DNA of 64,000 bases from assembly GCA_022710645.1 (NCBI GenBank), contig JAKLGL010000001.1:274712-338711 (forward strand), given 5' to 3'. The notes under the pieces were generated by a model. That model saw only the letters and a list, made by a program, of their open reading frames with translations, did no database searches and was not told the origin of the DNA. Source of the DNA: Patescibacteria group bacterium (GTDB lineage: Bacteria; Patescibacteriota; Patescibacteriia; Magasanikbacterales; GWA2-37-8). The position numbers were made by a program, and so were the translations under genes. Of this stretch, positions 789 through 63,218 are shown piece by piece (positions within the stretch are counted from its first letter, which is position 1; the number at the start of each line of letters is the position of its first letter).

Positions 789-3700
789 TTATTTTACTGA
801 TATACCTCCATTATATTCTTTCCACGCTTTATTTGAAGAATCACAATCATTAAAAGTATTAGAACCAAAAACTATTTCACTATAACATCCAATTCCATTA
901 TATCCTGCTGGATAATTAGTTGTATTATCACATTTTCCACTACACCACCCCCAATTATCTTTCACCTGAACAGCGGGTTTATATGTAATATTGGTATTGG
1001 CGATGTTAAGATAAAATTCATAATAATCAGCGCGACAGCCTTCTCCTCTGTTGTTTCCAAAACCTTCCGGATCATCATCAAGCGCCTGATTTTGAGGTTG
1101 ACATTTACCTTCTACTAAATTATCGGAAGATTCGTTATAAAAGACACAATCCCAATCTCCGTCGCAAGGAATTTGATATTTATAATCATCCGCGTTTGAC
1201 CAATTGGTTCCGCTTCCACCGACACAATAACCAAAATTGGTACATTTTGGTTTGCGGTTGCCCATACTCTCGGCTTCCACTTTTACAAAATCAACGTCAG
1301 AAATATTCTTTTTAACCCAAATACTGCGAAGAGGCATTTGCGCCGGATCGGCCCAAGCGTAAAATCGCAAGATAAGCGGTTGGCCGTAAGCTATTTGGAT
1401 ATCTTTACCCGTAACATTATCTCCAGTCACACTCATTTGATCAAGGACAAAAGAATTGCAAACTTTTTCCGCCTCGCATCCGAATTTATTGGCAGCCGCG
1501 GAATCTTTGCATTTTTGAATTTTAATATCACAATCTTCTTTTGACATTTTTACCGGAGCGGCGATTACCGGCGGACGGATTTTGATACCTAAATCTTTAG
1601 CTGCTTTAGGGGAAGCAAAATCAACTTTTAATCCTGCAGATCCAACCCACCCTTTAACAAACATTTTTCTGAACATGTTGCATATTGGAGAATCGTTCTT
1701 TTTAGAATTATCGCCATCTGGTAAAACATTTTCAAAAGGTATATTCTTTGAACAATCTGCCGCGATTTGATTTAAAGGAATGCGATATTTATAGGTATAT
1801 ATTTCTCCGTTTTCATAAGTACCATAATCCATCAAGTCGTTTTGCTTAGCTTCTTTAGAATCATAGTTAATTAATGCTACACCTCCATTTAAACTACCGC
1901 TATTACCCAATAAACCAAATGGTTGTTGATTGTCAGCATCCCAAAAATTAAAATATTTTCTAAAAGAATTTAAGAATTTCGGGTCTTCACCGTTTGTTAA
2001 ACCATAATACAATGAAGGGACGGCTTCTCTGCGAGCATAAATAGTTCTATATTTATAACTATTTGAATAAGCCGCAGATGAAGGTTGGTTATCATTAGAA
2101 TTATTAAAAAGAAATACCTTGTCCTTAATCAAACGCCAGGTTACAGGCTTTATGGAAAAAACATCTGTGTTGTCTCTAACAATGATTTTATCACTATTAT
2201 CCGCAGAACATGTCCCGTCAGAATAATGAACTATAAATATAAAAGCATTACCTCTTGACCCGTTTTCATCACCACCATCTATAGTGTTACAATTTGTAAT
2301 ATCACCAGAATGTTTTTCGTAAGTACCCCTAACATCTTTTGTTTCAACAGATAAACCGTCCAAAATTCCGTTTTCTGTCCATTTTATTTTCACAGTAAAT
2401 CCATTACTACCCTCTTTATATTTATCTTCTTCACAATTTATATTTCCATTAACACCCCAAATTTGCAGACCCCAATCGTTGCCGGTTAATTTTTGATAAC
2501 ATGTATTTGAAGGCTTAAAATAAGTTGAGGAAACAAAATACCCGCCATCACTATCTTTAAAAGCATCTGGCAAATTGTCATTTTTTGTGTTTAATTCAAA
2601 AAATTCTCCATTATAAAAAGTAAAGCGATTATTATCAAAATTATTTTCTATTCCTTCTTTAACCGAATCTGATACCAATACTTCTATTTTGGTAATTGAT
2701 TTTCTATCTATCTTTTCAAAAACGACATCAGAATCAGAGGAAGGAATACTATAATCTTCATTATCATCTGATGCATAAATATAATATGCTGTAGAATTAG
2801 GTGATAAATTTTTAATTAAAAGCTCCTGTCCGTTAACACCTTCGATCCCGGCATCATCATTATTTCTTTCACAGCCGAATTTTTTACCTTGAATATAATA
2901 AGGGTACATATAATTTCCTTGCCAGGAAATTTTTTGACCATTATCCGAATTTGAACACAATTCAGGAGAAGGGTTTTCACATTTTCCATTTATGTCATTT
3001 CCACAAATTTGCGTTGTACCACCAAAAGAATTAAGTGGTTCCAACTTTTCTCCCTCACCCCTAAAATCACTTCCTTTTACATACCACTCTCTCACAGGAT
3101 CCCCACTAGCATGGCTGATATATGAATTTAATTTTTGCGCATATTTATATGGTTCTATATTTGAAGCAGAACATGCCCAACTTGTATTATTAATACTATT
3201 TTTTACCGGATTATTATAAGCACATACTTCCAGAGGTGTTTTTTCTGTAACTCTCCACCCTGCTGTATCATCATAAACATACAAATCCGTAGCTCCTTCC
3301 ACTGATTCCACCGGCCACCAGGTCAAACAGGTATTATCCGTACCTCCGGCTGTGTAAAACGGATTTCTGACATCTTTTTCTACACAATAACCTTCCCAAC
3401 CAAGCAAAGCATTGATGGATTTCAAAGGAGAACAAATACCGCCACTGTTTTCATCTCCACAAGAATTGACAACTGTGGGATCACACCCTTTTCCTTCTTC
3501 CAATCCTCCCAAACAAACACCTTTGGCATAATCACCTTCAACAGCATTGCTTCCCAAATAAACATTTTGACTTTTATAATTGTATTTTTTATAACTGCAA
3601 TCACAATCTCCTCCAGAACACAGATTAACTTTATCGCTAAATCCTTTTTTAAACTCTCGATTAACTCCCGTAGCAGTACTATCTCGCAAAACCCAAAGAT

Positions 3701-6700
3701 TGAAAGGACTGTCCTGTTCCGGATATCCGCGACAGGATAACCCCGGAGATGCTTTGGGGTCTTCCATAACATCTGTTTTTTCCGTAGCATCCAAATCATA
3801 ACTTGAATAAGGCATTGCCGGGAATACGCATTCTTCTCCAGAGCAATAACCTTTTAAGCCTGGCATTTTGGCGCTTGAACATTCTTTCTTGGATGAAATA
3901 ACATCATTGACATTGCACACCGTAGTTGTAACTTCAGTATGAACAAGTTTATTTTCCGGAAGAATTATAAGTGGAATTCCATTTAAACCTGACACAGACG
4001 GATATTTTATTTCTCTAACTTGTAAATCGTAAATTTGATAAGAATTAAACAGAGAATATCCAGTAAACTCTTCGGCGTTCCAAGCCGTGGACCTGCTTTG
4101 ATAAACTTTTTTGGTAAGCGGAATATCTTTTTCCGAAGTCGAAGTGACTATATCCACACACTGTCCGTCACTGGTCGCACCGGCCTGGGCTTTGGTACAT
4201 AAACCCAAACGATAACAACGACTACTGAGTTGTCCCGTATCCCCGTCTCTATTGGTCATATATTCACTACAATAAGACCAGAGAGAACAAGTTCTATCCA
4301 ACATCACTTTCATGACAATATTGGCGTCATTGGTTGAAGCGTTATTTATCGGATCTACCAGGGCTCCGCCTTTTGCATTTGAAGCCGCGTAAGTTGCAGC
4401 CGTATCCCATGTTTTAGTCGGATTATCGGTTTTATCAAACAAAACACAACCGCTATTTAAACTTACTTTTCCCGAGCAATCTTTTTGCGCGTCGGAAATT
4501 TTACTGTTATTTATCAAATAGTATTCTTTATCCGGATCAGAACAAACATCTTTGGCATCACTAGTGCAATCTTTATCAAATTGACATTTTTTGCCGCTGA
4601 CGGCGCATTTCTTGCTTTGCGATTCTGAATATCTGTCGGTAAACAAAGTACAATCAGATTGATCAGCTGGACAAACACCGGTGTAATTCGCATAATTATC
4701 CGAACCGTAAGACGGTAAATAGCTTCCATTTACTGCCGAATTGTCCGCATAACAAATCGTGCTAGTAGTTCCTTTCATTAACCATTTATAAACGCCAGTA
4801 TCGTCTTTTTTCCATTCACAAATCAAATTGCCGTAAATCTCCGGATCTTTGAAATAATAATTGCTTGAACCGGATTTCCAAGAATCACAACCTTCGGCTT
4901 TATCATTACAAATAGAATTATCAAAATCTGAAGTATTAGGTTTGATTTTCAAATAAACATCTTGATATTTACGACTATCATCGGAAAGTAAAACAGAAGA
5001 ACCCAGAGCCGTACAACCTTTTTCCGCTTCCGCACATGAAACATTTTGATCTTTGAGCACCAGATAAATCGGTGATTCCGATCTTGGCGGAATAACTATG
5101 GTGGCAGTGGTGTAATATTCCGATAAAGCGCTCAATGCTCCGGACGGAGCGACTATTTTTTCTACATAACAACCATTTTCTTCTTTGGCGGCAAAACATT
5201 TCAAAGACACTCCGCCGACAGTCGTAGACAATTCTCCGCTTACGCCCGGTGTGCCAAATTCTGATTTTTTCAACCACAAATTATAGACAATATATTTTTT
5301 ACTGTCCGTACCGGCAAGTTCCCTATTGTTCGTATCGTAAACTTTGGTACACCCCTGTGCTCCATCACGGCAAAGATAACTAAAATTGTGCAAATATACG
5401 GGATTTAAACTTGCAGTGGTTTTGTAAGCGCGGCAACCCAAAGCTTGACCCGGTAAATTGTCTGTCTGGTCGGCATCGCACAAAGACGGCACTGTTAATT
5501 TATCTTTTACCAAATAAACAATATCGGAAACCAATTCAACTTTCACATTATCAACATACAAAATTTGACTTTGAACAGTGTTTGGTTTTAAAACCAATTG
5601 AGCTGTCAATTTATTTTGAGCGTCAGCATTGGCATCTTTTACAGCTTCAAAAACATATTCGTATCTCTTCCAATTATCCGTTAATGTAAAATCGGCAACA
5701 TTATTATTCAATAAATGCCAGAATCGTAAACCCCAAGATCCCGATCCTTTGGCCAAGAAAGAAACACGATAGCTTTTGCCCGGCGTCAAAGGTAGAGCAT
5801 AATATTTTGTCCCACTGGCTCCGCCGGCGTTTACCACTACTTTGAGAGAATGACCGTTATTTATCAAGCTTTCAGTAGAAACAGACAATGAAGTAAAAGA
5901 ATCCGCCGGATTGGCTTTTCCCCAAGTTTGAGTTTGGTTATCAGTGCCAAATACAACACTACCTTCAAAAGTTTGATTCATTAATGTATTGGAATAATTT
6001 CCAGTATTACCTTTATAAGGACGGCAAGAAACTTTTTCTTTGGCGCAAGCAAAACTGCCTCCGGCTGTCGTTTGTATTCCAGAAGGCAAACCGTTATAAA
6101 CACAATAACCAGTATTTACATCATAAAAAACCACCTTGTCTCCCCCGTCGTTTATACTTCCCAAGCAATCGGTACCAGTATCAAATTCAGGTTTAACTGC
6201 CCGATAAGAAGTACATTTGTCGGAAACCGCCACTGTTTTATTCAAGAAAACATAATATTTTTTACCCGTATCGTCTATCAATTCACGACATTGTTCTCCA
6301 TCGTCGGTTCTAAAATTGAAATCTTGAGCGGTTTGACTGCATTTTGAACGTAGCAAATCTCTTTCCGCAGTATCACGATACATTTGTTTCGGAGCGCCGG
6401 AACTTTCTTTTAATAAAACATAACTTATCAATTGATAACCACCGGCATCTCTGCCTTCATAAGTATAGAAATTCTTTTGTCTGTTTTTATCCGGCAAAAT
6501 ACAAGTTCGCAAATCAGTGAAATATTCCGTTTGTTCCAGGTTATTGCTAACCGTGGAAAGATTTACAAACGCGCTACAACCAGATTCTGAAGCACTGCAA
6601 CTCGCTTCTTTTTGCGGAATTATATAAGCCAAATCCGTCCCTTTACCGTATTTTGTCGGCATCTCTTTGTAAGAATTATAACCGACACAAGACGCATCGC

Positions 6701-9050
6701 ACTGATCATTCCAAGCAGTTACCACATTACTACTATTAACCGTGGCCGGAACAAATTTTCCAGTCACACTTTCTCCTGTCAAAAGACCGTCAAAATTAAG
6801 CGTCTGATACAATCCGCATCTTTCTTCTTCCGGCAAACAAACCGGAGAGTAATTTTTACAAGCGTCAGTACTGACTGGTTTTATTTTGTTGAAATCCGCT
6901 AAATTTTGTGGCCACTGCACGCCGTTACTGCGATTGTTATCACTATCATAACAACCTAAATAATCCGGCGCTTTTTTGAAATAAACAACATTTGATTCTG
7001 TCGAAGTATTCAGAGCCAAGGCCGTACAACCGGCATCTTTAGCTTGGCAAGTCTCTGTTTTTTTATTCAAATAAAAACCTTTTCCTTTGCCGTAATCCCA
7101 AGTTCCGCTGGCAAAATTACTGTTGGGATAAGTTTTGAAATTACTATAAAAAATACAACCAACATTATCACTGTCACACATCTCGCTATTGAGCGTTCTA
7201 GTTAAATAAGAAGAAGTTTTTCCTTTACTATTGGTTAAAACTTTACAAGTCGCATATTGACTATCGCAATAGTCAGCATCAAAACGCCAAACGCTTTTTT
7301 CTTTCAAACAATAACCGTAAGCCAAACATTTTCCGTTTTTGTCATAATCCACACAGGTTTGCAAATCAGCGCATTCTTCTTGACGAACCGGAGTATCTTT
7401 ATCTACAAGCTGAGTTCCGTAAACCAGAGATTTGCAACGAGCCGGCGGAATTTTCAAAACCCAATTCGGATTTATCAAGTGATAATAAGGAGAACGCACA
7501 TTATCAAAATTTTCCAAAATTTCTTTCAATGTCGGCGGACCGGAAACAAAAACATTTACCCCATTTGCATAAGCGGTGTTGGTAGCATTCACCTCGGTCA
7601 AAGAAGCTATTTCAAAACCAAGAGGTAGCACTCCGGCTTTGCGAAGAAGTTTGATATTTTTGTAACAAAAAGCTCCGGCATAACAATCTTTTTCACTATG
7701 TTGACGCTCAGTGGCTTCACCGGGGCCTATCAATTTCCAATTTTCATCCAAATAACCTTTTTCAATAGCGCCTCGAATAGTTAAAGGCTGACCTAATTCC
7801 GCCGATCTTATAGCTTGAGCAAACTGTTCATCAATCACGCAATTTTCAACTCCAGGATTATCCGGACAAGAAGAAAATTTTGATAAAAGATCATATTTGC
7901 TAATTTCTCTGGATTTGGCCACCAATAACAATTCGGCAAAAAGCGAAGCTGCTTCTTGTTTATAGGAAGATTCCCCGCCGGCATAATAATTTCCTTCAGC
8001 ATCGTATTTACTTTCCACGCAAGTATCTATGCTCAAACCGCCGATCTTGAGGTAACTCGGAACACATTTAACTTTTCCTAAACCAAAAGGAAACATGCCT
8101 TTGGTAAGAAAATTATCCATAGCCGTACCAGCGAAAGTATCTATAAAAGTAGAAGCCGCGTTCATCAAAACTTGTATAGAGCCTTTTTGTAAAGCCGCAG
8201 CCATATATTCTTGAGTGCTTTGTTTTTTACCCTCAACTTGTGCTCCTTTGCCGGCTTTTACTAACATATCTTTATTAACTTCAGCTGGAGTAATAATGTC
8301 GCCGGAAATAGCCGTGGTCAAAGATTTTACTCCCCCACCTTCGGTTCTTTCAGCCTTAGCAGCAGCCTCAGCATCGAGCGCATAACTATCCATTTTGCTT
8401 TTGGCTTCTATACCTATACCTAAATCAGTGTCGGAAATTTCCAAAGAAGTATTAAATCTCTTACTAAAACCTTCGCCGTTTTCCCCCCAATATTTACTTT
8501 TGATATTTTCCGCACTATAAGTATCTTTGAGCTGTTGAAAAGAACAGGTAGGTTTTGGTTCGGAGTAAGCCAAGTGCAAACCCATTTTCAAAGCCAAATC
8601 AAGTTTCGGATCAGGTAAACTACAAAGATTAAAACCGACACCTTTGGCAAAACTGTCCAAAGCCGTACCTAAAGCATCACCAGCCACTCCGGCCCAATAA
8701 TCACCCATGCTCTTGGTATTGAAAAGCGGAGATTGTCCCCAATTACCGGAAGCCAAACTCACAGCCATATCATATGCGACTTTATTTAAAAGAAAATCTA
8801 AACCTTTCATCGCACCAACCATTACCGAATCAATAAAATTATCTTCCACCTTATTCCAATTTTCTTCTAATTGAGCTTTTGTTTCATTCCATGTGTTCCA
8901 CATGTTTTGAGTATTGTCATAAGTTGGCAAGCCCTGAGCCATGGCCGGTGAGGCAAAAACAAAAGAAAAAGAAAAAATAACCAGAAGAAGGACTGGAAAT
9001 AGTTTAGGTTTAAGACGGGGAAAAAGGGACATAAAATATATAATTTTCAA
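789..9050 (-). CDS. Giant (2,753 aa) secreted Cys-rich extracellular protein; function unknown (candidate surface or adhesin protein)
   Basis: Single uninterrupted ORF. N-terminal signal peptide MKIIYFMSLFPRLKPKLFPVLLLVIFSFSFVFASPAMA. Composition is N/S/T/G/D/Y/C-rich with many paired Cys throughout. No catalytic motif was recognised. It is the last gene of a minus-strand operon. Confidence 0.6.
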   Translation of the reverse strand: MKIIYFMSLFPRLKPKLFPVLLLVIFSFSFVFASPAMAQGLPTYDNTQNMWNTWNETKAQLEENWNKVEDNFIDSVMVGAMKGLDFLLNKVAYDMAVSLASGNWGQSPLFNTKSMGDYWAGVAGDALGTALDSFAKGVGFNLCSLPDPKLDLALKMGLHLAYSEPKPTCSFQQLKDTYSAENIKSKYWGENGEGFSKRFNTSLEISDTDLGIGIEAKSKMDSYALDAEAAAKAERTEGGGVKSLTTAISGDIITPAEVNKDMLVKAGKGAQVEGKKQSTQEYMAAALQKGSIQVLMNAASTFIDTFAGTAMDNFLTKGMFPFGLGKVKCVPSYLKIGGLSIDTCVESKYDAEGNYYAGGESSYKQEAASLFAELLLVAKSREISKYDLLSKFSSCPDNPGVENCVIDEQFAQAIRSAELGQPLTIRGAIEKGYLDENWKLIGPGEATERQHSEKDCYAGAFCYKNIKLLRKAGVLPLGFEIASLTEVNATNTAYANGVNVFVSGPPTLKEILENFDNVRSPYYHLINPNWVLKIPPARCKSLVYGTQLVDKDTPVRQEECADLQTCVDYDKNGKCLAYGYCLKEKSVWRFDADYCDSQYATCKVLTNSKGKTSSYLTRTLNSEMCDSDNVGCIFYSNFKTYPNSNFASGTWDYGKGKGFYLNKKTETCQAKDAGCTALALNTSTESNVVYFKKAPDYLGCYDSDNNRSNGVQWPQNLADFNKIKPVSTDACKNYSPVCLPEEERCGLYQTLNFDGLLTGESVTGKFVPATVNSSNVVTAWNDQCDASCVGYNSYKEMPTKYGKGTDLAYIIPQKEASCSASESGCSAFVNLSTVSNNLEQTEYFTDLRTCILPDKNRQKNFYTYEGRDAGGYQLISYVLLKESSGAPKQMYRDTAERDLLRSKCSQTAQDFNFRTDDGEQCRELIDDTGKKYYVFLNKTVAVSDKCTSYRAVKPEFDTGTDCLGSINDGGDKVVFYDVNTGYCVYNGLPSGIQTTAGGSFACAKEKVSCRPYKGNTGNYSNTLMNQTFEGSVVFGTDNQTQTWGKANPADSFTSLSVSTESLINNGHSLKVVVNAGGASGTKYYALPLTPGKSYRVSFLAKGSGSWGLRFWHLLNNNVADFTLTDNWKRYEYVFEAVKDANADAQNKLTAQLVLKPNTVQSQILYVDNVKVELVSDIVYLVKDKLTVPSLCDADQTDNLPGQALGCRAYKTTASLNPVYLHNFSYLCRDGAQGCTKVYDTNNRELAGTDSKKYIVYNLWLKKSEFGTPGVSGELSTTVGGVSLKCFAAKEENGCYVEKIVAPSGALSALSEYYTTATIVIPPRSESPIYLVLKDQNVSCAEAEKGCTALGSSVLLSDDSRKYQDVYLKIKPNTSDFDNSICNDKAEGCDSWKSGSSNYYFKDPEIYGNLICEWKKDDTGVYKWLMKGTTSTICYADNSAVNGSYLPSYGSDNYANYTGVCPADQSDCTLFTDRYSESQSKKCAVSGKKCQFDKDCTSDAKDVCSDPDKEYYLINNSKISDAQKDCSGKVSLNSGCVLFDKTDNPTKTWDTAATYAASNAKGGALVDPINNASTNDANIVMKVMLDRTCSLWSYCSEYMTNRDGDTGQLSSRCYRLGLCTKAQAGATSDGQCVDIVTSTSEKDIPLTKKVYQSRSTAWNAEEFTGYSLFNSYQIYDLQVREIKYPSVSGLNGIPLIILPENKLVHTEVTTTVCNVNDVISSKKECSSAKMPGLKGYCSGEECVFPAMPYSSYDLDATEKTDVMEDPKASPGLSCRGYPEQDSPFNLWVLRDSTATGVNREFKKGFSDKVNLCSGGDCDCSYKKYNYKSQNVYLGSNAVEGDYAKGVCLGGLEEGKGCDPTVVNSCGDENSGGICSPLKSINALLGWEGYCVEKDVRNPFYTAGGTDNTCLTWWPVESVEGATDLYVYDDTAGWRVTEKTPLEVCAYNNPVKNSINNTSWACSASNIEPYKYAQKLNSYISHASGDPVREWYVKGSDFRGEGEKLEPLNSFGGTTQICGNDINGKCENPSPELCSNSDNGQKISWQGNYMYPYYIQGKKFGCERNNDDAGIEGVNGQELLIKNLSPNSTAYYIYASDDNEDYSIPSSDSDVVFEKIDRKSITKIEVLVSDSVKEGIENNFDNNRFTFYNGEFFELNTKNDNLPDAFKDSDGGYFVSSTYFKPSNTCYQKLTGNDWGLQIWGVNGNINCEEDKYKEGSNGFTVKIKWTENGILDGLSVETKDVRGTYEKHSGDITNCNTIDGGDENGSRGNAFIFIVHYSDGTCSADNSDKIIVRDNTDVFSIKPVTWRLIKDKVFLFNNSNDNQPSSAAYSNSYKYRTIYARREAVPSLYYGLTNGEDPKFLNSFRKYFNFWDADNQQPFGLLGNSGSLNGGVALINYDSKEAKQNDLMDYGTYENGEIYTYKYRIPLNQIAADCSKNIPFENVLPDGDNSKKNDSPICNMFRKMFVKGWVGSAGLKVDFASPKAAKDLGIKIRPPVIAAPVKMSKEDCDIKIQKCKDSAAANKFGCEAEKVCNSFVLDQMSVTGDNVTGKDIQIAYGQPLILRFYAWADPAQMPLRSIWVKKNISDVDFVKVEAESMGNRKPKCTNFGYCVGGSGTNWSNADDYKYQIPCDGDWDCVFYNESSDNLVEGKCQPQNQALDDDPEGFGNNRGEGCRADYYEFYLNIANTNITYKPAVQVKDNWGWCSGKCDNTTNYPAGYNGIGCYSEIVFGSNTFNDCDSSNKAWKEYNGGISVK

Positions 9051-9080
9051 TTTTTAATTTTCATTAAATTTTCAATCATC
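9040..9080. repeat. Left inverted-repeat arm (family B, ATTTTCAAT units) flanking a four-helix-bundle gene
   Basis: Sequence 'aattttcaatttttaattttcattaaattttcaatcatcaatttacaatttc'. Its reverse complement matches 9455-9510 and the gene-less copy at 22095-22200. Confidence 0.6.
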
Positions 9081-9483
9081 AATTTACAATTTCTTTATCA
9101 TTGCCTTTTCTGCTAGTCATGCCTATTTTTTGAAATATCATAGTTAGCTCCTGTGCTTCTGACCAGTATATCCTGAGTTCTTTTTTTAAATCTTCGTTAC
9201 AAACTGCTAACATTCTTAACCAGTGTTTTGTTTCTTGCGCTTCTTTTTTGCAAATAAATATTTTGTTTATAAAATCTTTTTTTGATGCCGCCCCATTGGC
9301 TTCCATATAATTAGCTCCCACACTAGTAGCTGATCGAATAATTTGACCAATCAAAGATTTGTTATATTCATTAATTCTTATTCTTTGACACAATTTAATA
9401 ATGTCTTCACCAAACTTTGCAGTCCTCTCTTCCAAATCATAACCAGATACCATATTTTGAAAATTAAAATATTGAAAATTCAA
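9079..9483 (-). CDS. Four-helix-bundle protein (PF05635/TIGR02436-like, '23S rRNA intervening-sequence protein' family)
   Basis: Motif ...SATSVGANYMEANGAASKKDFINKIFICKKEAQETKHWL... is typical of the family. The track ORF starts at a TTG; the probable true start is the ATG at 9453 (MVSGYDLE...). The gene is flanked by inverted repeats. Confidence 0.6.
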   Translation of the reverse strand: MNFQYFNFQNMVSGYDLEERTAKFGEDIIKLCQRIRINEYNKSLIGQIIRSATSVGANYMEANGAASKKDFINKIFICKKEAQETKHWLRMLAVCNEDLKKELRIYWSEAQELTMIFQKIGMTSRKGNDKEIVN

Positions 9484-9510
9484 TGAAAATTGTAAATTGT
9501 AAATTTTATT
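9455..9510. repeat. Right inverted-repeat arm (family B, ATTGAAAAT units)
   Basis: Sequence 'aaattaaaatattgaaaattcaatgaaaattgtaaattgtaaatttt'. Its reverse complement resembles 9040-9080 and 22105-22140. Confidence 0.6.
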
Positions 9511-10413
9511 TTACACTCCCCATTCAAATTTTCCCGTCGCTTCATTGTAATAATAAAGCTCTTTGATTTTTTCATCATTGTATTTGGCGGCAGTTTTTTC
9601 CAAAACTTCAAAAACACCTTCGCTATCTATAATTTCACTGGCTTCATTTTTAGGGAAAAATTGAATGATTTTTGATTTTATTTCCGAATATGACGGAACC
9701 GGCAAAGATTTACCGCCCGCCTTTTCTTCTTTTTGTGAAACAACATTATCTCCGATTTTCAAATTTCCGGTGCGAGCATATTCATCGGCAATTCTAAAAA
9801 TATCTTTTTTTTCAGAACCGAACATAAAATCTGTAAATTTATAGACATTTTCGACAAAAACCCCTTTATCATTCAAAAAATATTCGTTAAAATATTCATC
9901 TTTTGTTTGCAAATCTTCAAAAAGAACGTTTAAATATTTTTTAAATTCTTCTTTATTTTGAATTTGTCGAAATTTCACGATTACTTCCGAAAAAGCTATA
10001 CTTTTCTCTCCGATTTTCCCGATAATCGCTCCGGAATTTTTCATCGATTCTTTACAGGCGTTAAAATCTCCCAAAACTTCATCTTGGCTTTTCAAATAGT
10101 AATTTGAAGCTACATACAATAAAAATCTATCCAAAACATCGTATCCAAGCAAAAAAGACATGGCTATTTCTTTTTTAAAAAAAATGTCCTTGAGAAAATT
10201 TATAGGTAAATTCAAAAATCTTCTGAAACTTATCTCTGTAAACCAGCGCAAATATGATTTTCTCATTTCATAATCTTCTTCAAAATCGGTCGATGAAAAA
10301 ACATTTATCAAATCGCCAAAAAAAACATCCGCCTGTTCATTGGTAAACAAATCTATTTCAGCTTGCATTTTTTCCAATTGGCTATCATCCAAATTTAGCT
10401 GTGTTTTGATCAT
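9511..10413 (-). CDS. Hypothetical cytoplasmic protein (300 aa), middle gene of the giant-protein operon
   Basis: Intact ORF lying 8 nt downstream of the 1,054-aa gene. No TM segment or signal peptide. No recognisable family. Confidence 0.45.
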   Translation of the reverse strand: MIKTQLNLDDSQLEKMQAEIDLFTNEQADVFFGDLINVFSSTDFEEDYEMRKSYLRWFTEISFRRFLNLPINFLKDIFFKKEIAMSFLLGYDVLDRFLLYVASNYYLKSQDEVLGDFNACKESMKNSGAIIGKIGEKSIAFSEVIVKFRQIQNKEEFKKYLNVLFEDLQTKDEYFNEYFLNDKGVFVENVYKFTDFMFGSEKKDIFRIADEYARTGNLKIGDNVVSQKEEKAGGKSLPVPSYSEIKSKIIQFFPKNEASEIIDSEGVFEVLEKTAAKYNDEKIKELYYYNEATGKFEWGV

Positions 10414-10421
10414 ATGTCTTT

Positions 10422-13400
10422 TTATTTTTTATTTTTTCCTTGTTGTTTAGCGCCTTGTTCTACTCCTTTTTTAACAGCATCAGCTATTTTCTCGCTGGAT
10501 TTTGACAAAGCTTGGGCGACTTCTTTGGGAATTTTGGATAAAACCGCCTGAGCCGATCTCGAATTGTTTTCTATCATTTTCTCAAAAGTATTTACAAAAT
10601 CCTTGCCTAAATCCAAGTTTTTGAAACTTCCTGTCTTGGAATCAAGTAAATTCAAAAGTTCCGTGGAAAGACGGCCGTGGATACGTCCTTGGAAAGTGAA
10701 GTTTCTCAATGTTTGTATGATCATATTTTGAGCATGTTCATCCAAACCGACCATTTCTCCACTACTGTTAATTGAAGCTATACCGGACAAGCTCTCTAGG
10801 TCTCCGACTTTATTGGAAAGCGGGCCGGTAAAATATTTTTGACCTTCTAAAATTTTATTTTTATTTGTCTGTAATTTATATTCGGCTAAGCCATTCTTTC
10901 CCAAAGAAGTACCGTCGTAAATGGAAACCGTGTGCGAAAAACCGGAGGGCGCCGCAGCTCTGGCGGAAATATCGTTATTACGCAAAACTGTTTGCCAACT
11001 CTCGGCACCCATTTTTTCTTGACCAATTTTAAACATTTTTTTAGTTTCGTCCAACAACATTCTATCTCTTGTTTTTCCATATTCTTCGGCAAAAGCTTGA
11101 TCATAATCTTCATCTTTTAGAGGACCATACTTTTCTTCAATGTCTTTATCTGTTTCTGCTGATACCTTTTTGCTGTCAAGAATATCTTGCAAATCTATTT
11201 TTTCGCCAGCCATCCTTGCAGTTTCAACCAATTGATGAGCAAACGCATCTCCAGAATCGAGTTTGTCATATTTTATACCATAAGCTTCGTTAATGGATTT
11301 TTGTACCGCAGCAATACCGTCGGAACCGAAATTTTTAGCAGCCACGGATTCCATAGCAGCTTGATTGGATAATAAAGCTTTTCTTTCTCTTTCATAACTT
11401 TCTTTAGGCATAGCGGCTTTATTTTTATCCAATTCTATGACTTTATTGGCATTTTGAGCTGACATAGCTACCAATTCAGCATACTGTAAATTACCAAAAC
11501 TTTTCTCGCGTCCGGACTGTAACTCCGCCCAATAAGCAGCTTCGTTTGTCTTTGGTATAAATCTTTTTTCAGCTTGTTCATCTTTGGCTTTGGCAATTTC
11601 CAATTTTTTCTCATCTTCAACAATCATTTTGAGGGTTTCCGCACTGGCCTGTTGTCTATACACTTCATTTTGTTTTTCTCTGAATTTTTTATCTTGTTTT
11701 AATAATTCTTCTATTTTTTTGAGTTCTCTTATAGATTCTCTGGAACCGACTTCTTCTTTGAGTTGTTGTGTTTCAAGTTTAGTTTTAACAGTTTCTTCTT
11801 TCATGGTTCTGAAACGACTTTCTGATCTCAATTTTTCCTCAGCCGCTATTTTTTCTTGTTGTGCGGCAGTAAATTTTTTATAATCTTCAGATTCGCTTTT
11901 TAATCTTTCCAATTCTTTTTGTCTTTCCACATAACCGGCTTCACCCATTTTCAATTTAGCCATTTGATCCTTTATACGATCTTCTCTGGCTTGTTTCAAA
12001 CCTCCGGCTTGCGTTCCTTCCAATTCTTTTGCGAGAGTTTCTTCCATAATACCGGGCGCTTCAGTTTCAACCCAAGCTTGAGCATTTTCTTTAACACCAA
12101 TACCTCCAGCTTCTTTTCGTCTTTTTAATAATTCAGCATATGCTTTTACTCTTTCGTTTTGATTTTTTTGATTCCAGTTAGCTTTGGTTCCGGATAAATC
12201 ATCCAAAACACTATCCCATGCTTCGTTTTCTCCTTTGAGCTGTTTATTTAGTCTTTCATTCTTAACGGAACGATTATACATTTCGCCTACAAAACCACCT
12301 TCTCTGAGACTTCTGGCTGTAAATCTTTTTAAACCTGTTTTTGCGCCTTCATATCGATTCATCCAAGCATAACCGCCGATTCCCGGTGCATTCATAGCAA
12401 TACCCTTGGTAATACCAAGAGCAGCTCCTTTTGCTTTTTCCCCCGCCCAACCGGCCAATCTAACACCGGTAGCAACAGTAGCAATTTTCTTGGCCGTACT
12501 CATTGCCGAGCTTAAAGCGCTGGCACCAGTAACTCCAAGTTCCTGAGTTTTTTTAACACCGGTAATAAGCAAAGCAATAGCTATGGCAAAAGAAGCCATT
12601 TTACCCCATTCCATAGCCTGGGAAATACCGGTAGCCGTGCTACCAAATAACGCATTAGTTTCGTAACGTTTTGCCTGGTCAGTCGGCAAGACTTCATTAA
12701 AAGAATCTCCTCCACCAACTATGGCAAATGACAACCAGAAAAAGAAAGCTAAGATAGGACCAGCCATTACGTGATTGTTAAATTCTTTCCACCACTCAGA
12801 AGCGTATTTTTGGGTGTTTGGTAAAACACTACTCATAAACGCTATTGGCGAAAGAACTATCAAAGTCCACAAGGCTACAACACGAGCGATAACCACCAAT
12901 AAATAAGCTCCTATAACAAAAAAACTGATAACGGAAAAAAATACAGCAGCTACTCCGGTCACAAAAACATCCGTAGCGCTGGCGGCTTTTTGAGCCAATT
13001 CCTGATCCGGACTTAAATTGTAAATAGTATCTAAATTCAAACCTTTTATCACATTCCCTCCAGCAGTAGCGGCAAAGCCATTTACAAAAGTCATCATAAA
13101 AACCTGAGAAACATCGATAATCACACCGCAAATAACTCTGCTAAAATTCACCAACACGGCGGCGAAAACCAATTTTACTAAAAGTTTTTTCCATTCATAT
13201 TGTTCAATACCGAGAACCGTACCAAAAGCTATCACCAAAAGAATCAAAACAAAAAACATGTTCACTACATCGCGAACCAAAACCCAGCCCAGAATAACAG
13301 CTTGGGAGTTGATAAAATTATTATATGAAGCTATGACAATGAAAAGTTGCGACGCCCAAACCGTCAATTTGATAAAAAACTGGGCAATAAGCAACAACAT

Positions 13401-13586
13401 CCAAGTAATAATCGAGGCTATGCCCATAGAAATTTCTTCCGTAGTCGGCCAACCCCAAGCCAAAGCATACCCGGCAGTCAAAATCCCGCTAAAAACAAAT
13501 ACAAAAAATAACACAACCAGAAGTTTGTTTTTCTTGTTTTTTCCAAATCTGAATTTCTCCTTAATTTTCCCAAAAAAAGACGACAT
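10422..13586 (-). CDS. Polytopic membrane protein with a TrbL/VirB6-like N-terminal multi-TM domain (~330 aa) and a ~700-aa charged coiled-coil C-terminal extension
   Basis: At least 6 hydrophobic helices within residues 20-330, with a layout and Trp/Pro pattern reminiscent of TrbL/VirB6 (PF04610). The remainder is E/K/Q/A-rich predicted coiled coil. It is the first gene of the operon, with promoter at 13667-13695. Family assignment is by eye only. Confidence 0.4.
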   Translation of the reverse strand: MSSFFGKIKEKFRFGKNKKNKLLVVLFFVFVFSGILTAGYALAWGWPTTEEISMGIASIITWMLLLIAQFFIKLTVWASQLFIVIASYNNFINSQAVILGWVLVRDVVNMFFVLILLVIAFGTVLGIEQYEWKKLLVKLVFAAVLVNFSRVICGVIIDVSQVFMMTFVNGFAATAGGNVIKGLNLDTIYNLSPDQELAQKAASATDVFVTGVAAVFFSVISFFVIGAYLLVVIARVVALWTLIVLSPIAFMSSVLPNTQKYASEWWKEFNNHVMAGPILAFFFWLSFAIVGGGDSFNEVLPTDQAKRYETNALFGSTATGISQAMEWGKMASFAIAIALLITGVKKTQELGVTGASALSSAMSTAKKIATVATGVRLAGWAGEKAKGAALGITKGIAMNAPGIGGYAWMNRYEGAKTGLKRFTARSLREGGFVGEMYNRSVKNERLNKQLKGENEAWDSVLDDLSGTKANWNQKNQNERVKAYAELLKRRKEAGGIGVKENAQAWVETEAPGIMEETLAKELEGTQAGGLKQAREDRIKDQMAKLKMGEAGYVERQKELERLKSESEDYKKFTAAQQEKIAAEEKLRSESRFRTMKEETVKTKLETQQLKEEVGSRESIRELKKIEELLKQDKKFREKQNEVYRQQASAETLKMIVEDEKKLEIAKAKDEQAEKRFIPKTNEAAYWAELQSGREKSFGNLQYAELVAMSAQNANKVIELDKNKAAMPKESYERERKALLSNQAAMESVAAKNFGSDGIAAVQKSINEAYGIKYDKLDSGDAFAHQLVETARMAGEKIDLQDILDSKKVSAETDKDIEEKYGPLKDEDYDQAFAEEYGKTRDRMLLDETKKMFKIGQEKMGAESWQTVLRNNDISARAAAPSGFSHTVSIYDGTSLGKNGLAEYKLQTNKNKILEGQKYFTGPLSNKVGDLESLSGIASINSSGEMVGLDEHAQNMIIQTLRNFTFQGRIHGRLSTELLNLLDSKTGSFKNLDLGKDFVNTFEKMIENNSRSAQAVLSKIPKEVAQALSKSSEKIADAVKKGVEQGAKQQGKNKK

Positions 13587-16530: not shown

Positions 16531-17166
16531 ATGGAGATTAAAATGAATGGTAAAGGCAGAGAGACTCCGCTTTCAGAACGCTTAGAAAATTTAAAAAAAT
16601 TATCGGAATCAGAGAGAGCAAAGGATGAAGCTGAGGCTAAGAGAAAAAAAGAAGAAGAGGAAAGAAAAAGAAAAGAGGAGGAAGAAAGAAAAAAAGAAGA
16701 AGAGGAAAGAAAAAAACGAAGACAACTATCTGAAGAATACAAAAAACTAGCAGAAGAAAAAGAGAGAAAAGAAAAGATAGAAGAAGAAGAAAGAAAAAGA
16801 ATTTATCATGAAATCATCGATATTCATAAAACCAGGAACATTGCTGCCGTTGTTTTAAGTATTATTGGTACGATTATCGCTCTTTCTGTTGCGGGTATGG
16901 ATGAAAGTAACTCAATGAAAGAAATGTTTGGACTTTTGATAGTCGGGGGCCTGGTGGCTATTGTATTTCCTCCAGCCATCGTTGTTGCCGGAATCGCCCT
17001 TATCATTATTCTGTTAGTCTTAGCAATAATCATAATTCCTGTTGTTTTGGGAGTGGTAATTATCATATTCATGATAGCGGAAATTTATTGTAATGCAAAT
17101 TATGGCTGGGGTTATCGAAAATACATACAATATCATTCAGCCAAAAATAATTATTACGACGATTAA
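16531..17166 (+). CDS. Membrane protein with an E/R/K-rich single-alpha-helix-like N-terminal region and 3 C-terminal TM helices
   Basis: EEEERKRKEEEERKKEEEERKK low-complexity charged helix followed by hydrophobic helices. The likely true start is the ATG at 16545, 7 nt after GGAG. Terminator at 17194-17222. Confidence 0.5.
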   Translation: MEIKMNGKGRETPLSERLENLKKLSESERAKDEAEAKRKKEEEERKRKEEEERKKEEEERKKRRQLSEEYKKLAEEKERKEKIEEEERKRIYHEIIDIHKTRNIAAVVLSIIGTIIALSVAGMDESNSMKEMFGLLIVGGLVAIVFPPAIVVAGIALIIILLVLAIIIIPVVLGVVIIIFMIAEIYCNANYGWGYRKYIQYHSAKNNYYDD

Positions 17167-18466: not shown

Positions 18467-18507
18467 GAGTCTATAAAGTCCTTAATGTCTGTAATGTCTA
18501 TAAAGTC
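18467..18507. repeat. Left inverted-repeat arm (family A, GACTTTAYRGAC units) flanking the second four-helix-bundle gene
   Basis: Sequence 'gagtctataaagtccttaatgtctgtaatgtctataaagtc'. Its terminal 15-mer is the reverse complement of GGACTTTATAGACTC at 18926-18940. Confidence 0.6.
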
Positions 18508-18533
18508 AAAAAATCCGCATATTGCGGATTTTT

Positions 18534-18884
18534 TTAGTCTTTTAATGCTTTTATTAATCCTGAAAGCAACCTCGAAATTTCTATCGATAACTGATAACAA
18601 TTATCGTAATCACACTGCTGGATAATCTTTAAACTGAAAGCTAAATCAAGCATTGACCTCACTTCACCACAAGAACCCTTGGCAATAAACAGAAATTTTT
18701 TAAACTCCTTATCCCCTCTTCTTTCAAAACCTTCAGCAATATTATTCATTATAGAAACGCTTGCTCGTTGAATTTGGTCTTTAAACGAATAATCTCGTGA
18801 TGGTTCAAAAATCTTAAATATTATTATTGTTATTTGTTTGGCTTTTTGCCAAGCAATAATATCTTCAAACTTTTCGATTTTCAT
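18534..18884 (-). CDS. Four-helix-bundle protein (PF05635/TIGR02436 family)
   Basis: Motif ...ASVSIMNNIAEGFERRGDKEFKKFLFIAKGSCGEVRSML... is canonical for the family. Confidence 0.7.
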   Translation of the reverse strand: MKIEKFEDIIAWQKAKQITIIIFKIFEPSRDYSFKDQIQRASVSIMNNIAEGFERRGDKEFKKFLFIAKGSCGEVRSMLDLAFSLKIIQQCDYDNCYQLSIEISRLLSGLIKALKD

Positions 18885-18945
18885 AAATTTAACTTTACGG
18901 ACTTTAAAGACTTTACGGACTTTATAGACTCACACTAGACTTCTT
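18885..18945. repeat. Right inverted-repeat arm (family A)
   Basis: Sequence 'aactttacggactttaaagactttacggactttatagactc'. Confidence 0.6.
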
Positions 18946-20529: not shown

Positions 20530-22113
20530 TTAAATCAGGCTTTTCCCTGTCATTTCTTTGGGTTTTTTCAAATTAAATAATTTTAAAATTGTCGGCGCAA
20601 CATCGGCTAATCTTCCTTTTTTTAACTGTTTTTTCTTTTTATAAAAATCATTGTTCATCAATATCAGAGGTACTGGGTTGGTAGAATGTTCGGTATCGAC
20701 TTCACCTGTTTTGAGATTTATCATCGCTTCCACATTTCCATGGTCAGCTGTCACCAACACGGTACAATCTTTTTTCAAAGCCGTTTTTATCAATCTATCA
20801 ACTTCCGTATCCACGGTTTTGACGGCCATAACTCCGGCAATCAAATCTCCGGTATGACCTACCATGTCCGGGTTTGGATAATTGACGCAAATAAAATCAT
20901 ATTCTTTTTTTTCCAAATTTTTTATCAAAATATCAGTCATTTGTTTTGAACTCATTTGCGGACACGCGACATAACTGTCCACAACTTTTGATTCCACTTT
21001 TATCCAACGATCATCACAAAAATGTTTGGCGTAACCTCCGTTAAAAAAGTAAGTTACATGGGCGAATTTTTCGGTTTCGGATATATAAAGTTGTTTCATC
21101 GGACAAAGTACTTGGGTCAAACTATTAACAACATCGCGAGAAGGAAAAGCCGTCAATACACCGGGGAGATCGGGTCCAAAATCGGTCATGGCTACAAAAC
21201 GGGTGTTTTTGGGAACGCGAGAACGACGAAAAGAATCGGGATTAACTTTTTCAAAATCAGGTTGTACAAAAGCTTTGGTTAATTGCCTGGCTCTGTCAGA
21301 TCTTAAGTTAAAGAAAAAAATCGCATCATTATCGTTTATCTTGGCAATAGCTTTATTTTTTTCAACAATCACTGTCGGTACTATAAATTCATCTGTCTCT
21401 CCCGAATTGTAAGCCAGAGTCAAAGCATCTTCCGCCGATTCAGCGGTTCGGCAACTTTTACATTCAACCAAAGCATCGTAGGCCTTTTTTATCCTTTCCC
21501 AATTTTTACCCCTATCCATACCGTAAAACCTTCCCAAAACAGTAGCGATTTTTTCATTACCATGAAATTTTTCTTTTAATAATTTCAAATGTTTTGGAGC
21601 GTCATGTTGCCCGGAATCACGACCGTCGGTAAAAAGATGCAGATAAACTTTTTGAATTTTTTCTTGATAAAAGTAATCCAATAACGCGTATAAATGCTCC
21701 GGACAAGAATGGGCGCTGTTATGGTTTGATAATAATCCTATCAAATGAACGGCGGTATTATATTTTTTTATATGATGAACAGCTTGATCAAAAGCCGGAT
21801 TTTTGAAAAAAGTCCCATCTTTGATAGCATCGGAAATATATACCGCATCTTGTTTTACCACACGTCCCGCTCCCAAATTCATATGCCCGGCTTCACTATT
21901 ACCTTCTTCATCTTTAAAAAGACCTACTGCTTCTCCACTAGCTTCAAGTTTAGTATTGGGAAAATCTTTGAGCCAACGAAAATAATTCGGCGCATTCTCC
22001 GGAGTTATCGGATTGCCTTTATTTTTTGGACTAGCTATTCCCCAGCCATCCATAATGACGAGCATGACTGGGTTCTTTTTATTAGTCGGCATACAGAAAA
22101 AACAAATTTTCAA
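20530..22113 (-). CDS. gpmI: Second, divergent iPGM paralog arranged in tandem
   Basis: Motifs MDGWG, GNSEAGH, TADHGNVEA. Length is 527 aa. Only 22 nt separate it from the downstream paralog. The track start is a TTG; the probable ATG is at 22092 (MPTNKKNPVMLVIMDGWG). Confidence 0.8.
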   Translation of the reverse strand: MKICFFCMPTNKKNPVMLVIMDGWGIASPKNKGNPITPENAPNYFRWLKDFPNTKLEASGEAVGLFKDEEGNSEAGHMNLGAGRVVKQDAVYISDAIKDGTFFKNPAFDQAVHHIKKYNTAVHLIGLLSNHNSAHSCPEHLYALLDYFYQEKIQKVYLHLFTDGRDSGQHDAPKHLKLLKEKFHGNEKIATVLGRFYGMDRGKNWERIKKAYDALVECKSCRTAESAEDALTLAYNSGETDEFIVPTVIVEKNKAIAKINDNDAIFFFNLRSDRARQLTKAFVQPDFEKVNPDSFRRSRVPKNTRFVAMTDFGPDLPGVLTAFPSRDVVNSLTQVLCPMKQLYISETEKFAHVTYFFNGGYAKHFCDDRWIKVESKVVDSYVACPQMSSKQMTDILIKNLEKKEYDFICVNYPNPDMVGHTGDLIAGVMAVKTVDTEVDRLIKTALKKDCTVLVTADHGNVEAMINLKTGEVDTEHSTNPVPLILMNNDFYKKKKQLKKGRLADVAPTILKLFNLKKPKEMTGKSLI

Positions 22114-22200
22114 TTTACAATTTTCATTGAATTTTCAATGACGTAATTTACAAAATAGCCATTGATAATTGAAAATTGATAATTGATTGAAAATTAAAAA
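22095..22200. repeat. Gene-less copy of the family-B inverted-repeat element (MITE-like) between gpmI and eno
   Basis: 'attttcaatttacaattttcattgaattttcaatga' ... 'cattgataattgaaaattgataattgattgaaaatt'. The first part nearly matches the reverse complement of 9487-9520. Confidence 0.55.
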
Positions 22201-23448
22201 TTAAAAATTCTTTAGTTCACCCTCTATCTCCATCAATCTATTGTATTTTTCAACTCTCTCAGAACGAGATAATGAGCCGGTTTTTATCATGTCCGCATTT
22301 ACCGCCACCGCCAAATCGGCTATAAAAGTATCGGAAGTTTCTCCACTACGATGTGAAACATTAATTTTATAATTGGCTGCTTTAGCCATTTTAATAGTTT
22401 CTATCGTTTCACTCAAAGTGCCTATTTGATTAACCTTGATCAACACGGCATTACCTATTCCTTGTTTAATGCCTTCGGCAAAAATTTCAGGATTAGTTAC
22501 AAAAATATCGTCTCCGACTAAAATTAATTTTTCATCGGTTTTAGCAGTTAAAATCTTCCAACCCTGCCAGTCTTGTTCCGCCAAACCGTCTTCTACCAAA
22601 ATAAGAGGATATTTTTTTATCCATTCTTCATAGATTTTAATCATCGCATCAGCCGTAATATTCTTTCCTTTTTCAAATTGATATTTACCATTTTCAAAAA
22701 ATTCAGAAGCGGCCACATCTAAACCCAAAAACACATCTTTACCGGGTTTATATCCAGCGGAAATAATGGCTTTTACAATAGTTTTTAGCGCTTCTTCATT
22801 ATTTTTAAGATGCGGAGCAAAACCACCTTCATCCCCCACCGAAGTTGCCAATTTCTCCGTTTTCAAAATTTTCTTCAAACTATGGAATACTTCAGCTCCC
22901 ATTCTGACTCTTTCGCTCATTAATTTATGTTGCGGAATAATCATAAACTCCTGAATAGACAAACCACTGTCAGCATGAGCTCCACCATTGATAATATTCA
23001 TTGTCGGTACCGGTAAAAGAAATTTATTTTCTTTAATAGAAAAAACTTTACGTAAATATTTATAAAGAGGCATTTTTGCATTTTCCGCTCCGGCACGAGC
23101 AACCGCCATAGATACGGACAAAATAGCATTAGCTCCCAATTTCTCTTTATTTTTTGTTCCATCCATTTTTATCATTTTTGCATCTATTTCTTGGATTTTA
23201 TCCACGTCCATTCCGATGATAGTTTTAGCTATTTTTTCATTAACATTTTTTACCGCTTTAAGCACTCCTTTACCTCCGTATCTTTTTCCGCCATCGCGCA
23301 ATTCCAAAGCTTCTCGACTGCCTGTCGAAGCTCCGGATGGAACTTTGGCAACACCAATAACGCCGTTTTGCAAAACAACTTTGGTTTCAACCGTCGGATT
23401 ACCGCGAGAATCAAGAATTTCCCTGGCAATTATTTTTTTTATCTTCAT
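22201..23448 (-). CDS. eno: Enolase
   Basis: Canonical enolase sequence throughout (SGETED-like [27 protein letters not shown]). Confidence 0.95.
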
Positions 23449-23621
23449 AAATAAAAATTCTATTAAATTATTGTTTATTGTTTATTAATTATTTAAAATT
23501 AAACACAAAAATCATCAAAAATAATCAACAAACAATAACTAATAATCGCCGTTATCATAACATAAATTTTAATAAAACAAAAGACCCTTAGAATATTCTA
23601 AGGGTCTTTATTATTTTTCTT

Positions 23622-45548: not shown

Positions 45549-45594
45549 AATTTTAGATTTATGATTTATGATTTTAGATTGATAAGTTATTTAT

Positions 45595-45707
45595 GTCATT
45601 CCCGCGGGCCAACGGCCTCCCTTTGGGAAAGACGGAAACCTGCCTGCCGGCAGGCAGGTCCAGTGGCTATCTTACTTTTCCTGGATCCCCGCCTTCGCGG
45701 GGATGAC
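45595..45707. repeat. Composite palindromic element (family C variant): GTCATTCCCGCG ... CCTGCCTGCCGGCAGGCAGG ... CGCGGGGATGAC
   Basis: Terminal inverted repeats GTCATYCCCGCG. Internal perfect 20-bp palindrome at 45639-45658. Two additional GC hairpins. Confidence 0.6.
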
Positions 45708-63097: not shown

Positions 63098-63218
63098 GAA
63101 AGTCCATAAAGTCCGTAAAGTCAAAAAGAAAATTAAAAAACTTTCCCATTTGGGAAAGTTTTTTAATACTTTTTAAAAAGACTTTACAGACTTTAAGGAC
63201 TTTACGACTTTACAGACT
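63098..63218. repeat. Gene-less family-A inverted-repeat element enclosing the rplK terminator hairpin
   Basis: AGTCCATAAAGTCCGTAAAGTC ... [ACTTTCCCATTTGGGAAAGT-TTTTT] ... GACTTTACAGACTTTAAGGACTTTACGACTTTACAGACT. Confidence 0.55.

Follow-up and report, generated by a model that had tools for sequence, protein, structure and literature searches.

Does a small gene that lies between mirror-image arrays of short repeats belong to its host, or do gene and repeats form an element of their own? The question is raised by a 64,000-nucleotide stretch of a contig from a Patescibacteria group bacterium (JAKLGL010000001.1), referred to here as the window. At 18467–18931 of the window, a gene for a 116-aa protein with a predicted four-helix-bundle fold is enclosed by two inverted arrays, and a second gene of the same family is similarly packaged some kilobases away. 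A sequence-only reading had proposed that such genes travel on small inverted-repeat elements. We analysed the locus and compared it with ~170 related loci. The segment 18467–18931 is probably one copy of a widespread selfish cassette of the intervening sequence (IVS) type. It would be transcribed by read-through, its arms would pair to a stem open to cleavage by RNase III, and the arms would be bound by the presumably pentameric protein that the cassette itself encodes.

The element takes up the whole spacer between two convergent genes, with the stop codon of a DHH-family gene at 18465 on one side and that of gpmI at 18930–18932 on the other (Table 1). The cassette is ~465 bp long. Its arms measure 44 nt each and lie 377 nt apart. 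Both consist of tandem 9-bp units, in agreement with the period of 9 given by Tandem Repeats Finder, and the unit is the 9-mer YRT-AAAGTC. On the sense (−) strand of the gene, the arm at 18888–18931 reads GAGTC-TATAAAGTC-CGTAAAGTC-TTTAAAGTC-CGTAAAGTT. The sequence-only reading had described inverted arms with a perfectly matched 15-mer at their ends. The arms are real and the outer 15-mers, GAGTCTATAAAGTCC and GGACTTTATAGACTC, are indeed perfectly complementary, but the right arm had been extended to 18945, which is ~14 nt too far and reaches into the end of gpmI.

When all inverted repeats of the 64 kb with arms at most 1.5 kb from each other are ranked by length, the top two prove to be precisely those around the two PF05635 genes. 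The pattern GACTTTANNGAC, allowing one mismatch, occurs 16 times in the window where 3.2 are expected, and none of 100 shuffles reaches this count. Thirteen of the 16 matches fall in the loci 18467–18931 and 63099–63218. In the predicted fold, the 44-nt arms pair around the open reading frame (ORF) at −133 kcal/mol (z = −7.4). Rfam returned no match for the arms, neither at the locus with E values up to 10 nor in the whole window and 20 homologue loci at the gathering threshold, so the arms are not a curated RNA family. A PADLOC search gave no match.

Table 1. Coordinates of the cassette components and of related repeat elements, as positions of the window.
Feature	Position	Strand	Remarks
Distal arm (mirror copy)	18467–18510		84% complementary to 18888–18931; begins 1 nt past the DHH-family stop codon
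Intrinsic-terminator hairpin, bidirectional	18508–18534		AAAAAATCCGCA-TAT-TGCGGATTTTTT; between gene stop codon and distal arm
Four-helix-bundle gene (PF05635/TIGR02436, Avd-like)	18534–18884	−	116 aa
Gene-start-side arm	18888–18931		4–5 units of 9 bp, core AAAGTY; outer end overlaps gpmI stop codon by 2 nt
Gene-less copy, AAAGTC family	63099–63218		Between rplK (+) and queA (−); AAAGTC array 63099–63122, GACTTT array 63180–63218
Second cassette	9035–9512	−	124-aa PF05635 gene 9079–9453 (−); 42-nt arms 9035–9076 and 9471–9512
Gene-less hairpin, AATTTTC family	22105–22202		Arms 22105–22139 and 22168–22202; between enolase and second gpmI paralogue
Gene-less hairpin, ATTGTTT units	23467–23546		Arms 23467–23494 and 23519–23546, 28 nt, 86% complementary; upstream of enolase

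The enclosed protein belongs to PF05635, a very large family for which we know of no function outside diversity-generating retroelements (DGRs). PF05635 is the sole domain found in the 116-aa protein (E 1.3e-31, 109.4 bits, cut-off 33.8), which also matches TIGR02436 (E 9e-31, 106.3 bits, cut-off 24); the 124-aa protein of the second cassette scores 56.1 and 76.3 bits, respectively. An AlphaFold2 monomer model of the 116-aa protein shows four helices with a predicted local distance difference test (pLDDT) value of 95.6. Model and family scores agree with the four-helix bundle that had been called from the letters. Foldseek places the model closest to 2GSC (XCC0516), with a template modelling (TM) score of 0.90 and a sequence match of E 4e-11, and to 2RLD (BT_0352), with a TM score of 0.83. 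The accessory protein Avd of DGRs (4DWL, 8UB7) follows at ~0.75, with a sequence identity of ~10–13%. As modelled, the fold is that of DGR Avd and of the ORF product of 23S rRNA IVSs. The protein is mildly basic (pI 8.8–9.0); 2GSC, 2RLD and Avd are pentamers (PMC4990558; bioRxiv 10.1101/2023.10.23.563531).

The packaging of the gene recurs across homologues. The fhb1 set comprises 80 loci with 58–94%-identical homologues, taken from species-representative genomes of Patescibacteria, Bacteroidota (including the cultured Segatella hominis BCRC 81118, L041, and Labilibacter sediminis CG51, L034), Spirochaetota and other phyla; 77 of them entered the statistics. The fhb2 set consists of 80 metagenome loci with 61–85% identity to the second-cassette protein, and 75 were used for the array-type count. 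In nearly all fetched loci, the fhb1 gene lies between arrays of the same kind with a period of 7, 8 or 9, and the number of units per arm peaks at 4–5 (background ≤2). The arrays have a polarity: on the sense strand of the 77 loci, the 120 nt upstream of the gene contain 281 AAAGTY and 28 RACTTT motifs, and the 120 nt downstream contain 267 RACTTT and 17 AAAGTY motifs. The inverted-repeat score of the gene flanks has a median of 39, compared with 17 for 378 control genes from the same loci (p = 8e-38), and it exceeds the control 95th percentile in 67 of the 77 loci. Since unit preferences that differ between lineages confound the comparison between cognate and non-cognate arms, a shuffle of the unit order was added. 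In 34 loci, the real order is more complementary than the shuffled one (Wilcoxon p = 7e-5), and each arm is thus a genuine mirror copy of the other.

The sequence of the repeat unit follows the protein. Arrays of AAAGTY on both sides are found at 41 of 77 fhb1 loci and at none of 75 fhb2 loci, whereas AATT-type arrays, under a strict pattern, occur at 13 of 75 fhb2 loci and at none of the fhb1 loci. In the arm listing of all 80 fhb2 loci, almost all have AATTTNC/CAATTTN arrays. At least seven further PF05635 subfamilies carry other units of 6–9 bp (ACGTTSA, TAGCTWT, CGTGAAA, ATTTGTTT, GGGAAAA, GGTTYAA, AGTAGGG, GGTGACA and AGGAGTC). The unit type is fixed per protein subfamily and accompanies the subfamily across phyla. 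Because the repeat unit is specific to the subfamily and travels with the protein in this way, gene and arms are to be regarded as one co-evolving unit. In nearly every subfamily examined, the gene comes packaged between mirror arrays of its own type, which gives annotators a rule for recognising PF05635 cassettes and their relics.

The history of the cassette can be followed in the orthologous DHH/gpmI spacer of relatives (L numbers denote the compared loci), ranked by DHH identity to the window. The closest, L169 (89%), has a plain terminator hairpin only, without units. A full cassette is present in L171 (81%), L006 (77%) and L189; L191 (79%) retains AAAGTT arms around the terminator hairpin, without an ORF. 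L173 (75%) is without a cassette, and in L175 (58%) the two genes overlap. The sequence-only reading had pointed to this spacer for comparison, and full, arms-only and absent states do occur there among relatives. The adjacent spacer between gpmI and its paralogue gpmI2 goes through these three states as well, here with the AATTTT type: L171 has a full fhb2-like gene, L173 a hairpin and the window a spacer of 22 nt.

The cassette also has a history that differs from that of its flanks. Compared with L006, the window has a nucleotide identity of ~75% outside the cassette and of ~96% within it. The change falls at the arms, and the terminator hairpin at 18508–18534 is conserved along with the rest. 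Identity at fourfold sites is 0.89 for the fhb gene, 0.375 for gpmI and 0.47 for the DHH gene. Because the cassette gene is so similar at these sites within flanking genes that are synonymously saturated, the sequence comparison indicates that the cassette was exchanged recently between the lineages of the window and L006. In the comparison with L171 and L189, cassette and flanks have diverged to a similar extent, yet the protein is still 87% identical. With synonymous sites saturated against L171, this amino-acid identity indicates purifying selection on the protein.

Decayed forms complete the picture. Gene-less hairpins with loops of 5–15 nt are found in L026, L030, L036 and L043, and the arms in L019 enclose a relic of ~88 nt that still resembles the N-terminus of the protein. 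To judge from L191 and L019, the ORF was lost on site in at least part of the gene-less copies. The alignments as a whole show that the cassette behaves as one piece bounded by its arms: species acquire it, lose it, pass it to one another or retain it without its ORF. A cultured-phage collection contained no homologues and IMG/VR only three distant ones; phages are therefore no obvious vehicle. Contigs L001–L005, which encode the exact protein, are ≥99.98% identical to the window and provide no polymorphism information. The source genome belongs to Candidatus Magasanikbacteria (Patescibacteria), and identical contigs are present in GCA_035454185.1 and in several metagenomes.

A link to rRNA is provided by an insertion in L043. 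Helix 45 is a classical IVS site, the sites of IVSs being helix 9, 25 or 45. The Rfam LSU alignment places a gene-less hairpin of the AAAGTC family (7797–7867 of L043) within the 23S rRNA gene of a member of the Magasanikbacteria, as an insertion in the loop of helix 45. We know of no explanation, since 1993, for the ORF-bearing 23S IVSs and their ‘S23p’ protein. The 23S IVSs of Leptospira and Coxiella burnetii resemble the cassettes in several respects: they encode a PF05635-family protein, fall in a size class of ~430–760 nt, have terminal inverted repeats that enclose the ORF, lie in sense orientation in the host transcript, and show a sporadic distribution and signs of horizontal transfer (PMC4990558). 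Their terminal repeats form a stem that is cut by RNase III, as is known for the Coxiella IVS, and they are suspected to be mobile by a mechanism that is not known (PMC4990558). In addition, 23S_rRNA_IVP ORFs are present in rRNA insertions of the Candidate Phyla Radiation (CPR) (PMC11270868). Unlike these IVSs, the window copies lie outside rRNA helices, between protein-coding genes, and one of them has an internal terminator; their arms are subfamily-specific arrays of short tandem units, which we have not found described for IVSs. A second insertion of ~730 nt is seen at ~6347–7077 of L043, in the same 23S gene. It lies at E. coli 23S nucleotide ~1931, which we take to be a typical intron or homing-endonuclease site in CPR rRNA.

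The orientation of the cassettes is informative with respect to their expression. The upstream neighbour is co-directional at 71 of 73 fhb1 loci and at 44 of 49 fhb2 loci, and the neighbour arrangement (+,+) is observed 64 times against one case of (−,−). A scan for sigma-70-type promoters in the arm upstream of the 116-aa gene found no promoter-like site; the units are thus probably not promoters, and the gene is probably co-transcribed with gpmI. The gene appears to need read-through from its host gene, just as an IVS relies on the transcription of rRNA. Since the flanking genes converge and the internal terminator is bidirectional, only read-through transcripts would contain both arms.

These elements can be assembled into a putative mechanism. 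The cassette would be a selfish hitch-hiker, transcribed by read-through from a host gene, which is gpmI in the window. In transcripts that include both arms, these would pair into a ~44-bp stem with the ORF shut off in its loop. Like the stem of the classical IVSs, it would be an RNase III substrate, and the insert could be cut from the rRNA or the polycistronic mRNA at little cost to the host. The 4–5 subfamily-specific units are most readily accounted for as putative binding sites for the presumed pentamer of the cassette's own protein, with one unit per protomer. The precedent for this proposal is Avd, a basic pentameric barrel of four-helix bundles. The RNA that it binds is structured and adjacent to the gene for Avd, and each of the five protomers contacts bases of the RNA stem-loop through the same residues (bioRxiv 10.1101/2023.10.23.563531). 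Unlike Avd, to which it has the low identity given above, the window protein is flanked on both sides by tandem-unit arrays. In this form, the vague idea of a ‘selfish ORF’ is turned into concrete questions, namely pentamer–repeat binding and RNase III cutting of the arm stem.

A number of points weigh against the selfish IVS-type cassette. In the window cassette, the internal terminator precedes the distal arm, and the complementarity of the arms is only ~84%. Arm mismatches across the fhb1 loci include 63 G:U-compatible and 89 A:C cases; with no G:U excess, no covariation support is claimed for a sense-RNA stem. Arrays are weak or absent at ~10 of the 77 fhb1 loci, weak in L187, and direct instead of inverted around the gene in L168. 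The sequence-only reading had suggested a search for target-site duplications, and none is found at either AAAGTC-unit copy of the window: the outer flanks (...ATAGC|GAGTC and GACTC|ACACT at 18467–18931; ...AGCCG|AAAGTC and AGACT|AATAT at the rplK/queA site) hold no direct repeat. No enzyme for movement is visible. A transposase was noticed neither in the window nor at the surveyed loci, with no search of the complete genome. The exchange with L006 could have proceeded via homologous replacement of a resident cassette and not by element-driven insertion. Finally, we infer protein–arm binding and RNase III cleavage of the arm stem by analogy.

A more far-reaching interpretation is conceivable, which we advance tentatively and with less confidence than the cassette itself. 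PF05635 proteins might be the sequence-specific end-binding proteins of an unrecognised superfamily of ORF-bearing foldback cassettes without a recognisable transposase. Each subfamily would read its own 6–9-bp unit, one per protomer; the cassettes would be the source of bacterial rRNA IVSs, and Avd would be a relative that was recruited to a retroelement. If true, this may explain dispersed short-tandem-repeat hairpins, such as the cyanobacterial short tandemly repeated repetitive (STRR) arrays, and the association of ‘23S rRNA IVP’ with cas operons.

Both connections can be illustrated with cyanobacterial plasmids. The long-known STRR heptamer arrays of heterocystous cyanobacteria were reportedly described by Mazel et al. 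in 1990, and STRRs have been reported inside a helix of cyanobacterial RNase P RNA. In a comparable manner, inverted heptamer arrays (AGTAGGG, GGTGACA, AGGAGTC, GGGAAAA) surround PF05635 genes on plasmids of Nostoc, Anabaena and Geminocystis; the sequences of these heptamers differ from the three canonical STRRs. The Nostocales arrays around the PF05635 genes of the cyanobacterial plasmids L181–L186 (L184 being Nostoc punctiforme pNPUN01) and L188 are STRR-like in kind, and a common origin is possible. On two plasmids, L168 (1504–1863, Pseudanabaena) and L181 (601–969, Anabaena), a PF05635 gene with heptamer arrays is located between cas6 and cas4. In published data, ‘23S rRNA IVP’ is statistically associated with CRISPR adaptation genes (PMC10910872). 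Insertion of cassettes, rather than function, may account for this association, and the cas6/cas4 cassettes offer such a simple alternative reading.

Could the arrays instead serve the host? A domesticated host system would use them as terminator, insulator or mRNA-stability hairpins, and the protein would act in trans on all arrays of its type. Descent would be mostly vertical, with frequent loss. A parallel is found in the repetitive extragenic palindromic (REP) sequences (REPINs) and their REP-associated tyrosine transposases (RAYTs). There, too, a single gene lies between inverted short repeats, gene-less hairpin copies are scattered through intergenic regions, and each gene subfamily has its own repeat type. 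However, RAYTs are HUH/Y1 transposases of known chemistry and REPs are single palindromes, whereas the window protein is a small helical bundle without a known catalytic motif and its arms are tandem arrays. Such a host system would account for gene-less hairpins at intergenic positions typical of terminators, for the purifying selection on the protein, for the match between unit type and subfamily, and for gene-less arrays that coexist in the window with one gene copy of the same type. It is harder to reconcile with the closest relative, L169, where the same spacer holds a plain terminator without arrays, and with the high identity of the cassette shared with L006 (0.89 at fourfold sites) within saturated flanks. 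An insertion inside helix 45 of 23S rRNA cannot be a terminator. Moreover, proteins that are 60–70% identical across phyla, including cultured Bacteroidota, are better explained by horizontal spread than by vertical descent. We therefore regard a host system as unlikely.

Even less probable is an ordinary foldback transposon or miniature inverted-repeat transposable element (MITE), with its transposase encoded elsewhere and the four-helix-bundle gene as passenger cargo. Foldback-type elements with arms of tandem units are known in eukaryotes, and the cassettes share with these and with MITEs the small size, the terminal inverted repeats, the gene-bearing and gene-less states and the internally deleted derivatives. 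In contrast to such elements, the cassettes invariably enclose one and the same gene family, which corresponds to the sequence of the arms, and the covariation of arm unit and protein subfamily across phyla is unexpected for a passenger. Furthermore, the window copies lack target-site duplications, and the two copies within the 64 kb analysed are not close to identical. The surveyed loci revealed no candidate transposase, and arms-only copies arise in place at the orthologous site. What remains of the earlier proposal is that the genes ride on small inverted-repeat elements, which is supported by the spacer states, the L006 exchange, the hairpin in 23S rRNA and the decayed copies; the part that fails is the picture of cargo carried by a generic MITE.

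RNA-mediated mobility deserves still less weight. In such a scheme, the Avd-like protein would recruit a trans-acting reverse transcriptase, from a DGR or a group II intron, to the arm-bounded transcript, and the cDNA would retrohome. The resemblance to Avd and to the DGR ribonucleoprotein (TM ~0.75) and the sense orientation of the cassette in transcribed spacers are in line with the idea, as is the role of Avd as an obligatory RNA-binding cofactor of the DGR reverse transcriptase (bioRxiv 10.1101/2023.10.23.563531). However, none of the public gene calls in the 20 kb around the cassette has a Pfam reverse-transcriptase match, and no reverse transcriptase came to notice beside the surveyed loci, where no systematic test was made. 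No template/variable repeat pair, poly-A tract or other retro-signature was seen either, in repeat scans that were not designed for template/variable pairs.

The arrays might also be a chance resemblance within AT-rich DNA of low complexity in the spacers beside an ordinary gene, and a genome of 37% G+C that is rich in short tandem repeats might have spoken for this. Such an origin is excluded by the shuffles (0 of 100), the control genes (p = 8e-38) and a motif polarity (281:28 and 17:267) that recurs in 77 independent loci.

How much of this has been described before? The Avd homology of the protein family has been noted in print (PMC10053308). In our literature searches, neither the tandem-unit arrays beside the gene nor the specificity of these for the subfamily nor the gene-less derivatives were found described, although unsearched literature might contain a description. 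Judged on its sequence, the cassette would represent an IVS-type element outside rRNA with a defined, testable anatomy, for which we found no published description.

The window contains further elements of the same kinds. The sequence-only reading had recognised two repeat families, each with a gene-bearing and an empty state, and had placed an empty copy of the AAAGTC family around the rplK terminator; our analysis leads to the same conclusions. At the rplK/queA site, the arrays flank a terminator hairpin at 63125–63174, and the segment folds at −52.4 kcal/mol (z = −11.9). The rplK/queA hairpin, CTTTCCCA..TGGGAAAG, is similar to the one inside the full cassettes of L171 and L189. The 64 kb contain just the two AAAGTC-unit copies, at 18467–18931 and 63099–63218, whose units follow a different order and whose internal hairpins are not the same. 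In the AATTTTC family, the arms of the second cassette are 86% complementary and made of 7-bp AATTTTC/AATTTAC units. The empty state is the hairpin at 22105–22202, and the orthologous enolase/gpmI2 spacer of L173 holds a similar one. The hairpin with ATTGTTT units may be the relic of a third cassette type, because the PF05635 gene of L020 (7120–7509) is flanked by ATTTGTTT units.

Two other elements are of a less clear nature. At 55897–55934, a one-sided AACTTTAT/AACTTTAC array is located upstream of, and overlaps, the annotated TTG start of a uvrB-like ORF (53853–55937, −). No inverted partner was seen nearby, and the array could be half of a decayed cassette. At 45594–45707, a GC-rich insert of ~114 nt lies between two genes of this 37% G+C genome. 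It ends in inverted repeats of 13 nt (TGTCATTCCCGCG ... CGCGGGGATGACA) and follows a 7/21-bp tandem array (45550–45590). It looks like a different, MITE-like palindromic element, for which Rfam returned nothing.

Some neighbouring genes deserve mention. The segment 18930–22113 encodes tandem paralogues of cofactor-independent phosphoglycerate mutase (gpmI; 525 and 527 aa, ~41% identical). They belong to a run of glycolysis genes (eno, pgk, gap) whose spacers are repeatedly occupied by cassettes or hairpins in relatives. The second cassette is flanked by very large ORFs that have no Pfam match on record, at 789–9050 (2753 aa) and 10422–13586 (1054 aa); the 1054-aa protein is kept beside the DHH region in L006, L169 and L171. 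At 16531–17166, a Lys/Glu-rich repeat protein is encoded, with AAG-rich tandem repeats at 16639–16801. Its length is 207 or 211 aa among the near-identical contigs (L001 11719–12342 versus L002 11719–12354), the sole length polymorphism seen.

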